DNA of 64,000 bases from Catajapyx aquilonaris (GCA_000934665.2 KZ538040.1:62001-126000); one strand, 5' to 3'; positions 54,162 to 58,079 are shown, numbered from the stretch's first letter. Made by a program: numbers and translations. Notes: generated from the sequence alone by a model not told the origin.

Positions 54162-54439
54162 CCCTCATGATGAGGGGTATCTCCAAGCTGTTCGAGCTGA
54201 CTGGCTTGACCATAGCGGCGATTGGAGAAGGAAAGACACCGACGTTCACGATCGACGGCGGAGGTAAAGCTGGAAAACTTGGCGTCCGGTCCTGGGCGAA
54301 AGGTCAAGACTACTACGACGAGTACGATCCTTACTACGACGCTCCTGCTGGACGAGATCAAGACGACTACGACGATGGTGGTGTAGGTGCAGCAGACGAC
54401 TATGCCGATGATCCAGACTATGACAATGAAGTTTATTAG
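54162..54439 (+). CDS. nested secreted-protein gene A, exon 2 (Asp/Tyr-rich tail); full protein 119 aa
   Basis: A 99-bp intron (54063-54161) ends ctcttattcttcAG. G+CC=Ala joins in frame with ORF 54167-54439. Codon usage looks coding (many gac/tac codons). AATAAA at 54506-54511. Confidence 0.85.
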
Positions 54440-54505
54440 GCCATGTCTGTGACACGTCAAGGTGGGGATTGGACACAGTGTCTGTCGATAGGTAGTGCGA
54501 GAAAG

Positions 54506-54511
54506 AATAAA
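54506..54511 (+). promoter_or_regulatory. putative polyadenylation signal of gene A
   Basis: AATAAA about 65 nt after the stop codon, followed by GT/T-rich sequence. Confidence 0.6.
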
Positions 54512-54936
54512 ATGGAGTTGATGGTCTCTAATGTGTTATTATGACTTACAGTATGGTTTGTATGGACACTGGATACGTTGCGGTAAAGCATAGCAAATAT
54601 CATACACAGAATTCACAATGCTTGACTCACCCCGTACACAAGTTGACTCATCACCTAAGGTGCGTGGAGTTACAATAGACGTCACTTTTACCTTTCAACA
54701 ATGAGATGACAGAGTAGTGTCCCTCTATAGCGGTCATGGGGCACACTTCAATGGAGACGAGACTTGCTGGTTATATCACCCTGGTGGGCTTTGCCCGCGC
54801 AGTGATTCATCACCAACGTGAATGTAGTACTACTTTCCCCCGCACGGCAGTAGTGTGCAGAGGGAGAGCCTATGCGCCAACCGGTAGAAGCCTATGTAGG
54901 CCCACTACTTCCAAGTGTAGGGAGGGGGCAAGCAGC

Positions 54937-54951
54937 ATAATAATAATAATG

Positions 54952-55019
<68 letters not shown>
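54937..55019. repeat. (ATA)n microsatellite
   Basis: Near-perfect triplet run lying between genes A and B. Confidence 0.95.
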
Positions 55020-55020
<1 letters not shown>

Positions 55021-55776
55021 GCTGGTGGCTTAACCTTTTGTGTTGAGGGAATATTATTATTTTGTCAACTGAGGTGCATTGTGAGTCACAGAAGGGGGGA
55101 GAGGGTTGAGATGAAGGGTCGGTGAATTCCCAAGGTAGGTCGCTAATGAATATTTTAAAGTCATTTTGGGGCTCTCCTTAATGCAACGGGGTTTCTCGGC
55201 ATGACCCAGGGGCAGGCCAGGGGATTTCAAATCTATCGTGAACCGAGCGCGCAGGTCAAGCTGTATTGACAGGATGTAAAATCACGGCGGAATTGCTGGG
55301 GTTATTGGCTGGCAATTTTGTTAATAGCAGAATGATTAGCAGTTTTATAGGGATTCGGAGTCCACTCATTTGCTGGCGATGGGCTCACTGCAGGATTGTA
55401 TACACTTATGGAAATGAAGCTGAATAGTGGACATGTTACGTTGCAAAATGTGGCAATAAATTTCCATCAATTAGAGCAAAACACACAGGTATGGTTCCAG
55501 ATAACTTTACTGAAGGTTATGTTGTACAGTCTTGAGACTCTGTAAGGTATGTAGCAACTAAAAGCAACAAACATGGCAACATCTGAACAATCAAAATCTA
55601 GACTGTAGGATTAGCAACGGACCAATCAAGGAAGTGGTTTCAAGTCCTAAAATATATTAGTGCATATAAAGTAAATTAGATTAAAATATTAAAATACTAC
55701 GGTGCGGTACAAAGTAAATAATTATGAAAGAAGTTATTAACATAAGAGATGAAATAAATTTTTATTAAGTAGGAAA

Positions 55777-55875
55777 TATTAAAGAAATTATCAAAGTAAG
55801 AAGTATTAAAGAAATTATCAGAGGAAGAAGTATTAAAGAAATTATCAGAGGAAGAAGTATTAAAGAAATTATTAA
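55777..55875. repeat. 27-bp tandem repeat, about 3.5 copies
   Basis: tattaaagaaattatcagaggaagaag units. Confidence 0.85.
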
Positions 55876-56535
55876 AACAATAAAAATATAATAATACAAT
55901 AAATGTCCCACAAAATATTAAAATATGTGTAATAGATTCATTAACACATTAATAAATGCAATATACATAATTGTGAAATGAATAATTATAAAATATTTGG
56001 TGCTAAATTAATATCGCCTGGTAATATACTGTAGAATCACATTCGTCATTGGCTGTCACTTCCGCCCACATTTCCGGCGCCATTGTATGTTATTAGATCA
56101 TGATCTAGAGCAAATAATCACAAATATTATTTTTAGAATATTAAAACAATAATTTAATAACGCCAAACCTCTGCATGGTTGGCTTCAACCATGACTACCG
56201 GTGACCTGAAAATGACCTAGAATTAAACGACAAACCTTGTGGTTGACGCCATGTTGGCTGCATTTTGCTGGGTACTTACCACAGCCTGTATACTTTTAAG
56301 CCTGACAGGCAAAGATCCTATATACTAACCGCATCTTATTTTTAAGAGCAGTCCGTTCCTTATATTGAATCCTGTTGTAACTGAGCGATACCCGACTTAT
56401 TGAATGCGACTCCATATCTTGACGCACATAAAAGCTGGGTCGTTTGGAGGTGATGACACAATAGGCAAATGACGCACTGCCTCTCGAACACCCCCCTCGA
56501 AGCGTATCCGAATTGCGTTCCTGAGGAATGCAACT

Positions 56536-56542
56536 TATATAG
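56536..56542 (+). promoter_or_regulatory. possible TATA box of gene B
   Basis: TATATAG about 75 nt upstream of ATG 56615; positional inference only. Confidence 0.35.
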
Positions 56543-56614
56543 AGAAGAATCGGCCGATATCCGTCCAGGTTAGCGGAGAGACTTGATCGGTTCTGGAGGA
56601 GGAGTGGATCCGGG

Positions 56615-56702
56615 ATGAACTTCCCCGTGTTGGTCCTGTCAACGATAGTCGTCCTCTGCGTCGCACCCCAGCCCTCGACACAGAATAATGAAGAGAGTTT
56701 AG
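56615..56702 (+). CDS. nested secreted-protein gene B, exon 1 (signal peptide)
   Basis: MNFPVLVLSTIVVLCVAPQPSTQNNEESL, then G|GTAGGG donor at 56703 (phase 1), the same architecture as gene A exon 1. Confidence 0.75.
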
Positions 56703-57142
56703 GTAGGGCCTCGACCCCATGTCACGATCCCCAGAATATTAGGCCGAGTTATGCACTACCCAAGGTCCACCCAGGGTTGCTATCAATTGTTGCCAACAAG
56801 GCACCTTTGAACCTTTGGTGGTAATAGAATCAAGCCTGCACTGCAGCAAACTAATTCAAAATTATGTTGGAACAACTTTAAAATTTAGAAGAAATTATCA
56901 TTTATCCACAATATTCCAAAAATTAATTAGTTTTAATTTATAACTATTTTGTTTTCAACTCCAAGTATTGACATGGTGCTGCAATTCGTCCTAATATCAT
57001 ACTCGTACATAAATCCAGCTATTTTTATCGTCGAATGTTATTCTGAATATTTCAGAGTCGTGGATTTCTGAGGCCAAAGAAAGAGGGGAAATTCCAAGTA
57101 GGCCTAATATCGCATCTTTTCAAACGATTTTAAGCTTGGTTG

Positions 57143-57351
57143 CCCAGCCTAACTTGTCATTGACGTCATCGTTTTGTTTACCAATTCCTTGTCAACGGAT
57201 GGAACAGTGACTCTGTTTACTCCCATTGCTGCTTGAGGGCAACTCCATGGGCACTTGAAAAGTTGGAGGTTCCAGGGGTGCGTTCGGAAGATTTCTATTG
57301 ACAAAGGAATCGGTAAGTGAAACGATGACGTCAATGACAAGTTAGGCTGGG
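57143..57351. mobile_element. foldback/MITE-like element (32-bp perfect TIR) in the intron of gene B
   Basis: cccagcctaacttgtcattgacgtcatcgttt (57143-57174) pairs with aaacgatgacgtcaatgacaagttaggctggg (57320-57351); imperfect pairing continues inward. No clear TSD. Confidence 0.75.
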
Positions 57352-57426
57352 ATGGTACGTCACACTGAAATGTTTACATGAGATGAGGCTGTACTTAACT
57401 GACCGTTTTGGTTGGGAACACACCAG

Positions 57427-58079
57427 CACAGGTGATGAATGGCCTGATGAAGCTCCTGCAGGTGATGAAGGACATGAAGAATGACGGAGGAGGAGGAGAA
57501 GGATCTAAGTCCAAGGGTGACAAGCTGAAGGTGAGGGCAATGGGCAGCATGGAGGAAGAAGACATCAGCGACTATGAGTACGACGAGAGTAAGCTGAAGG
57601 TCAGAGCAATGGGCAGGAACGACATGGCGCCAGTGGTGCAGAAGGAGGAGATTCCTGATAAGGAAGAGCTGATAGCTCTAGCCATTGCAATCCTCAAGGA
57701 TCCCTCAGACGACGACGATCCAGCGGTGAAGAAGGCCAGGGAGTACATTGCTGACCAAGGGTTGAGCGTCAGAGCCTTCGGAGAGGACGATGAGGTAGAG
57801 TACACAAAGCACATCACCGACGCTTTGGCCGAGCACGACGCGGCTGGCATTGAAGAGATGAAGGAGGCCTTCTACAAGTTCGACGAGATCGTGTTACAGA
57901 TGCCCGAGTTCGAGAGCAGGAATTGGCATAAGAAAGTGTTGGCTGGCCAGATGGTCGAGTCTCTTCCGGAGAACCTGAGGGACCTGCTCGATGATGTGGT
58001 CAAACGGTCCGTTGCCAGCGATTTGGATATTCACTTCGATGAGATGATACTGCAGATTAGAAACGAACTTGGTGTTTAG
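57427..58079 (+). CDS. nested secreted-protein gene B, exon 2 (acidic, repeated KLKVRAMG motif); full protein about 246 aa
   Basis: Longest ORF in the window (57408-58079), with coding-like GC3 bias. Branch-like taactgac at about 57396 and caccAG acceptor at 57425-6, with a weak pyrimidine tract. G+CA=Ala gives EESL-A-QVMNGLMKLLQV, which aligns with gene A. AATAAA at 58127-58132. Confidence 0.85.

Follow-up and report, generated by a model that had tools for sequence, protein, structure and literature searches.

A short motif shared by two acidic, cysteine-free orphan genes of Catajapyx aquilonaris, possibly a substrate-like site for an arginine-specific protease

Within a stretch of 64,000 nucleotides of the Catajapyx aquilonaris genome (GCA_000934665.2 KZ538040.1:62001-126000, referred to as the window), two neighbouring genes, termed A and B, encode acidic, Cys-free and predicted secreted proteins that share an eight-residue motif carrying a single Arg in most of its copies. 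This motif had been described in an earlier note, made from the sequence, which regarded it as the repeated unit of a processed precursor releasing acidic peptides or, alternatively, as a substrate-like site for a trypsin-family protease. Based on gene models, transcript evidence, conservation of the motif and searches for relatives, A and B are described here as expressed orphan genes with an apparently constrained motif, for which the second of these interpretations is tentatively favoured, side by side with a non-proteolytic one.

Structure, expression and products of genes A and B

Genes A and B are real, spliced, expressed and separately transcribed tandem genes on the plus strand (Table 1). 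Transcript evidence originated from contigs of one public run (X1), for which the kind of library is not on record. These contigs skip three intervals with GT..AG ends in A and B, and three of the five aligned records show at least 99% identity. Since three introns are precisely removed in two genes, the contigs are most simply explained as RNA-derived. The two exons of gene A form an open joined frame of 119 amino acids, interrupted by an intron with GT..AG ends (54063-54161) whose contig joint has four ambiguous bases. For gene B, an open joined frame of 260 amino acids is composed of three exons. All three introns are of phase 1. Each gene has its own start codon and its own leader. Moreover, the sequence AATAAA is located 13 nt before the end of the contig of A and 3 nt past the end of the contig of B.

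The first exons encode signal-peptide-like segments, recognized by eye, of 22 residues in A (53981-54046) and approximately 17 residues in B. Exon 2 of gene A codes for an N-terminal helix-like segment, two copies of the motif and an Asp/Tyr-rich tail, and exon 3 of gene B for an N-terminal helix, a disordered region containing motif copies and a C-terminal half that is helical in a low-confidence model. The A and B of the earlier note are the last exons of these spliced genes. Its version of B lacked the additional 42-nt exon and used another exon start, which had to be corrected, as the last exon begins at 57427.

Intron 2 of gene B harbors an inverted repeat (57143-57351) with arms of 48 nt that are 92% complementary and 113 nt apart. 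This element looks like a miniature transposable element. A separate contig of the same run (3029 nt) matches 39 nt of one arm with three mismatches; therefore, related copies of the inverted repeat are probably present in transcripts elsewhere.

Table 1. Position of genes A and B, their motif copies and further features in the window, numbered from its first nucleotide.
Feature	Position	Strand	Remarks
Gene A, exon 1	53956-54062	+	ATG at 53981; exon end in phase 1; contig 53956-54058 joined to 54158
Gene A, exon 2	54162-54524	+	Stop 54437-54439; AATAAA 54506-54511; contig extends to 54524
Gene B, exon 1	56568-56702	+	ATG at 56615; exon end in phase 1; contig joint from 56700 to 57054, GT..AG, cut +2
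Gene B, exon 2	57056-57097	+	42 nt, phase 1 to phase 1; contig joints on both sides
Gene B, exon 3	57427-58124	+	Stop 58077-58079; AATAAA 58127-58132
Motif A1, GLTIAAIG	54203-54226	+	Ala in place of Arg; top-scoring window of A with the B profile
Motif A2, KLGVRSWA	54275-54298	+	Second-best window of A with the B profile
Motif B1, KLKVRAMG	57522-57545	+	Match to the strict pattern
Motif B2, KLKVRAMG	57591-57614	+	22 of 24 nt identical to B1
Motif B3, GLSVRAFG	57759-57782	+	Predicted loop between two helices
Acidic Asp/Tyr-rich tail of A	54302-54436	+	Tyr predominantly in acidic context
Acidic tract of B, DISDYEYDES	57561-57590	+	Follows B1; two Tyr in acidic context
EEIPDKEEL of B	57645-57671	+	First Glu 13 residues past the Arg of B2; near-match to exosite-I pattern (PMC8573170)
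VVKR|SV of B, only KR pair	58002-58007	+	Within the predicted helical C-terminal half
TATA-like TATATAG	56536-56542	+	32 nt upstream of 56568, the first contig base of B; contigs cannot prove a transcription start
UNC5-like netrin receptor, first Ig exon	21399-21707	+	PDB sequence matches; alignment to insect UNC5
UNC5-like netrin receptor, second Ig exon	51680-51961	+	PDB sequence matches; alignment to insect UNC5

Judged by eye from their signal-peptide-like N-termini, A and B are predicted to be secreted-type products that enter the secretory route. The mature proteins are devoid of Cys and strongly acidic, with a pI of 4.05 for A (97 residues; 22 Asp and Glu versus 8 Lys and Arg) and 4.50 for B (243 residues; 56 versus 31). 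Arg is scarce, with three residues in the precursor of A and ten in that of B. Dibasic pairs are absent from A, and the three found in the precursor of B (KK, KK and KR) do not adjoin any copy of the motif; the KR pair is the one already listed in the earlier note, to which the two KK pairs have to be added. Furthermore, Tyr residues occur in acidic context in eight of nine cases in A and two of five in B, and those in the tail of A represent candidate sulfation sites.

Short internal repeats were observed in both genes. The tail of A contains a 21-nt repeat (54301-54321 and 54355-54375, encoding GQDYYDE and DQDDYDD), and the first helix of B contains the pair QVMNGLMK/QVMKDMKN (57429-57481). 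A further pair in B, FDEIVLQM (residues 152-159) and FDEMILQI (residues 204-211), is 52 residues apart and was matched by 31 of 1000 shuffles. These repeats suggest that A and B grow through small internal duplications.

For the last exon of B, a single-sequence AlphaFold2 model with a mean pLDDT of 42 and a pTM of 0.26 was available and, due to this low confidence, was used for rough secondary structure only. In this model, residues 2-18 form a helix, residues 19-78 lack regular structure, and a run of helices extends from 79 to 215. Both KLKVRAMG copies are located in the unstructured stretch, and GLSVRAFG is located in a loop between helices 99-110 and 120-135.

Two candidate motifs were considered and dropped. 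An EF-hand reading of EEMKEAFYKFDE was abandoned, as the segment has no loop and no Pfam hit. The tripeptide KGD preceding B1 was likewise discarded as an integrin motif, a tripeptide being expected by chance.

The shared motif, the search for relatives and the genomic context

A motif island that can be written as [KG]-L-x-[VI]-R-[AS]-[MFW]-[GA] is present in three copies in B and two in A, all of them on the plus strand at the places given in the earlier note. Its stricter form, [KG]L.VR[AS][MFW][GA], yielded four matches in the six-frame translation of the 64 kb, and all of these are in A or B. Since this strict pattern was tailored to the known copies, two independent checks were run.

The DNA duplication reported previously for B (57522-57547 and 57591-57616) was recovered with a length of 26 nt, 24 of 26 positions identical and a spacing of 69 nt. 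Within the motif itself, both changes between B1 and B2 are synonymous (Val GTG/GTC and Arg AGG/AGA). Identity drops to 12 of 43 nt in the downstream flanks and 10 of 30 nt in the upstream flanks, and a gapped alignment of the downstream flanks was equalled or beaten by 688 of 1000 shuffles. As the flanks are at random level, B1 and B2 represent a sharp-bordered island and not the remnant of a recent larger duplication.

Moreover, an eight-column profile derived from the three copies in B was applied to protein A. The two best windows are GLTIAAIG (score 17.0) and KLGVRSWA (score 15.0), and the earlier proposal that the motif is retained in the neighbouring gene was borne out. In shuffled versions of A, the best window reached 17.0 in 86 of 20,000 cases, and the pair of best and second-best windows was reached in none of 20,000. 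B3 and the copies in A share 11-13 of 24 nt with the other copies and yet encode the same residues. Furthermore, the motif Arg is kept in four of the five copies by means of three different codons (AGG, AGA and CGG). Taken from these sequence comparisons, the motif is apparently under constraint.

Each Arg-bearing copy is followed by sequence rich in Asp, Glu and Tyr. For the 20 residues following the motif, net charges of -5, -3 and -7 were obtained in B and values of +1 and -4 in A, with protein-wide means of -2.1 and -2.5. The acidic segments postulated to follow the motifs therefore exist, but they partly reflect background acidity, as two of the five windows belong to the most acidic 15%.

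The overall similarity between A and B is not significant (BLASTP E = 0.092; the observed local score is reached by 214 of 1000 shuffles). Their description as divergent paralogs is accordingly kept as plausible, based on their tandem position on one strand, the phase-1 end of both leader exons, their composition and the shared motif, whereas overall sequence similarity gives it no significant support. A third gene copy was not found by tblastn within the window.

Relatives were sought in several collections. Pfam returned no family for A or B at E-values up to 10. Among 5.8 billion word-indexed proteins ('near' lengths), 280 candidates were obtained for B and two for A, and none of them reached E <= 0.01. 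HMMER searches against 1.84 billion representatives gave no hits, and PDB sequences gave none for B and one for A at E = 4.6. In the ESM Atlas, the best scores were 0.82 and 0.87, which is under the lead level of 0.9. JGI metagenome contigs provided 151 pattern matches, none of which was confirmed, and a full-text literature search with the motif strings returned no match. As far as the collections searched are concerned, A and B are orphan genes without a detectable relative.

A gene for an UNC5-like netrin receptor precedes A and B on the same strand, with its second Ig exon 2-6 kb upstream of them. The PDB matches of its two Ig exons are UNC5B, UNC5D and UNC5A (E 4.6e-28 to 4.5e-25), and in an alignment with an insect UNC5 of 1024 aa the two exons correspond to residues 61-169 and 171-262. 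For the first Ig exon, 72 of 107 candidate proteins match at E <= 1e-10, with all named ones being of arthropod origin and identities of at most 69%; for the second, identity to any match is at most 76.6%. In a midpoint-rooted tree of 198 columns, calculated for 26 of the 72 matches that were hand-picked for taxonomic spread (46 were left out), the window sequence falls outside the sampled winged insects as a whole and is separate from the millipede/decapod group. This placement is weak due to the 198 columns, the midpoint root and the lack of a chelicerate among the matches. The source is accordingly treated as an arthropod to which no annotated species in the searched collections is closely related. 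The two Ig exons are separated by an intron of approximately 30 kb. A and B are probably nested in the intron following the second Ig exon; as no later UNC5 exon was found in the 64-kb window, we infer this nesting. The possibility that the UNC5-like gene uses A and B as alternative last exons was rejected, because both have an ATG and a signal peptide of their own and are covered by separate contigs.

Scans of the window with Rfam and for tRNA genes gave no hits. Located in the spacer that separates A from B are an (ATA)n microsatellite (54937-55019; about 28 copies), a tandem repeat with a unit of 27 nt (55773-55876; about 3.9 copies) and, upstream of gene B, an unspliced, low-depth contig of 251 nt from run X1 (56000-56250; depth 3.9). 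The region 43911-44416 is composed of long trinucleotide-repeat tracts that translate into homopolymeric Val, Thr, Ser or Leu in every frame, and is probably simple-sequence DNA and not a gene. The 243 N positions of the window comprise one long run at about 32.9-33.1 kb and many single N in long G or C homopolymers (e.g., 52747), several of which are part of a recurring G/C-rich repeat (PPPPPXPPPP or GGGGXGGG in translation).

Possible functions of the motif

As a tentative interpretation, the motif may be recognized, in the manner of a substrate, by an Arg-specific serine protease of the trypsin fold, aided by the acidic tracts. The motif would then be a short linear site in which P4 is Leu, P2 is Val and P1 is Arg, followed by a small residue (Ala or Ser) at P1' and a bulky hydrophobic one (Met, Phe or Trp) at P2'. 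The downstream Asp/Glu/Tyr tracts, with their probably sulfated Tyr, would strengthen binding through electrostatic contacts with a basic surface of the enzyme. A and B could act as cleavable decoy substrates or competitive protease regulators or, equivalently, could themselves be cut, or activated by cutting, at the motif Arg. In this view, neither protein would serve to carry repeated bioactive peptides.

Several observations are in line with a protease site. Conservation extends over both sides of the Arg (P5 to P3'), which fits an active-site cleft or another binding groove and fits poorly with a released peptide. The motifs are located outside the helices predicted by AlphaFold2, which at a pLDDT of 42 adds weak support. 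In the four Arg-bearing copies, three of the five consensus positions of human thrombin as given in PMC3288055 are matched, namely P1 Arg, P1' Ser/Ala and a non-acidic P2'. Furthermore, inhibitors from fleas, ticks and leeches carry the pattern E-x-I-P-x(0,1)-[ED]-x-L approximately 13 residues after P1, according to PMC8573170, and in B the distance of 13 residues between the Arg of B2 and EEIP equals this inhibitor spacing, with Val instead of Pro at P2. Sulfotyrosine clusters are known from acidic Tyr contexts like those of A and B (PMC9372746). In this respect, the second proposal of the earlier note, a substrate-like site for a trypsin-family protease, appears compatible with the anatomy of both proteins.

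Other findings weigh against a protease site. PMC3288055 also attributes a 200- to 400-fold effect on the cleavage rate to P2 Pro and P3' Arg, and the motif has Val and Gly/Ala at these positions. EEIPDKEEL deviates from the exosite-I pattern by one extra residue, since two residues are inserted between Pro and the acidic position (PMC8573170). GLTIAAIG is the best match of A to the B profile and has no Arg; therefore, the constant core is reduced to L-x-[VI]-x-[AS]-hydrophobic-[GA], which in sequence terms is an alternating, strand-like pattern that would need no protease. Downstream acidity exceeds the protein background in two of the five copies only. Moreover, purifying selection would rest on two synonymous changes, a pattern that could equally result from local gene conversion. 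The protein, HMMER and metagenome searches yielded no orthologue by which conservation across species could be demonstrated, and the mechanism as a whole is inferred from about 40 residues of sequence.

An extension of the protease-site interpretation appears improbable as it stands. It would regard A and B as the founding members of a new family of multivalent, Cys-free regulators of serine proteases in an arthropod that does not feed on blood, with two to three substrate-like sites per protein, each provided with a sulfotyrosine or acidic anchor, and directed at the animal's own cascades (immune, clotting or digestive) or at microbial proteases. The bipartite logic of active site plus exosite, to date described for the anticoagulants that leeches, ticks, fleas and flies produce, would thereby be put to another use.

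About as likely as a protease site, and thus equally tentative, is a non-proteolytic role, in which the motif may form a short amphipathic beta-strand capable of self-pairing or of pairing with a partner. The surrounding protein would be polyanionic, disordered and possibly Tyr-sulfated, with binding of cations, minerals or basic surfaces as its main task, in the manner of matrix-, secretion- or granule-type proteins. Alternating hydrophobic residues are present in all five copies, whereas Arg is present in four, and it is the Arg-less GLTIAAIG that tops the profile matches in A. The extreme acidity of both Cys-free proteins, the construction of the Asp/Tyr-rich tail of A from internal repeats and the internal repeats of B, which are typical of fast-evolving structural or secretory proteins, also agree with such a role. 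However, the low-confidence AlphaFold2 model gives no strand at any of the B copies modelled. Moreover, retention of Arg by way of three codons in four of five copies, within Arg-poor proteins, argues that this residue matters.

It is rather unlikely that the motif has no specific function and is a leftover of small internal duplications, of gene conversion or of youth in fast-evolving orphan genes. Both genes are indeed rich in short internal DNA repeats, two substitutions between B1 and B2 carry little statistical weight, and the searches yielded no orthologue. But the repeat ends abruptly at the borders of the motif, where a recent duplication would have left similar flanks, and the diverged copies in B3 and A keep their residues; therefore, the motif outlived the divergence of the surrounding sequence.

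A multi-copy neuropeptide or prohormone precursor, cut by convertases at the motif Arg and at KR to release acidic peptides, is very unlikely, and the multi-unit precursor proposed in the earlier note is accordingly disfavoured. Signal peptide, repeated motif, acidic stretches and one KR pair would suit such a precursor, and B2 is followed by Gly-Arg, so that an amidated end would be possible in principle. However, no motif is flanked by any of the three dibasic pairs of B, and such pairs are absent from A. Gly plus a basic residue follows one of the five copies only, and the conserved 8-mer straddles the Arg. The would-be products are unlike each other in length and sequence, as judged from the flanks (12/43 and 10/30). 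Moreover, the C-terminal 140 residues of B are predicted to be a helical run and not a spacer, and neither protein shows a Pfam family at E-values up to 10.

Least probable, with hardly more than a slight chance, is the special case of a protease site in which A and B are anti-haemostatic, salivary-type inhibitors of host thrombin and would have arisen convergently to the Cys-free inhibitors found in ticks, fleas and flies. The proteins are Cys-free, secreted-type and acidic with Tyr clusters, an Arg precedes EEIP...EEL by 13 residues (PMC8573170) and the tandem gene pair diverges fast, but there is no indication of blood feeding in the source animal, whose UNC5 fragment is at most 69% (first Ig exon) and 77% (second Ig exon) identical to its matches and is positioned outside the sampled winged insects. 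EEIPDKEEL deviates by one residue from the exosite pattern of PMC8573170, Pro is absent from P2, and B, which has a helical domain, exceeds those inhibitors about six times in length.

Should the motif be a module for protease recognition, A and B would extend the design of a site plus an acidic or sulfotyrosine anchor beyond the anticoagulants of blood feeders and would offer a compact Cys-free scaffold for probing serine-protease cascades of arthropods. If it is no protease module, A and B would be one more lineage-restricted pair of secreted acidic proteins. Even then, they provide a clean case of a short linear motif that is constant amid drifting surroundings, of expressed genes that standard homology-based annotation would miss and of apparent nesting in an intron of a conserved receptor gene.

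Comparison with known systems

Like A and B, multi-copy neuropeptide or prohormone precursors combine a signal peptide with a short motif that is repeated and with acidic stretches in between. They differ in that the repeats of A and B have no dibasic or Gly-basic flanks and in that the conserved unit straddles the putative cut. Precursors of linear peptides from spider venom are likewise secreted arthropod proteins with anionic linkers, and in spiders they are cut after single Arg residues (PQM and iPQM scheme; PMC7889660). According to this source, the linkers start and end with Arg, and the flanking quadruplets contain Glu, or Ser/Thr in some iPQM. The corresponding quadruplets of A and B (LKVR, LSVR, LGVR, RAMG, RAFG and RSWA) are without Glu, and therefore they depart from the PQM/iPQM scheme as set out there. 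Moreover, the cationic peptides of 20-35 residues that this account places between acidic tracts are missing from A and B.

Sulfotyrosine-rich extracellular domains share with A and B the clustering of Tyr among Asp and Glu, and such clusters serve as polyanionic binding surfaces (PMC9372746). A and B differ from them in that no LRR or other known domain was found with Pfam, and their sulfation is a prediction from sequence context. Similar clusters of Tyr and acidic residues occur in the N-terminal domains of small leucine-rich proteoglycans.

The most extensive likeness was found to thrombin inhibitors of blood-feeding arthropods such as variegin, avathrin and flea XC-42/XC-43 and to madanin and hyalomin, which use exosite II. 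According to PMC8573170, these proteins are secreted, Cys-free and disordered and have no sequence relatives beyond a narrow lineage. They carry a basic P1 residue in a substrate-like segment, and an acidic stretch of the E-x-I-P type some 13 residues further on, or else acidic Tyr clusters. A and B have no sequence homology to them, and the site is repeated two to three times per protein. Furthermore, these inhibitors are about 30-80 amino acids long, as compared with 243 residues and a helical C-terminal half for mature B. Due to the near-miss in the exosite pattern and to Val at P2, the thrombin inhibitors represent the closest known design, and not the family, for A and B.

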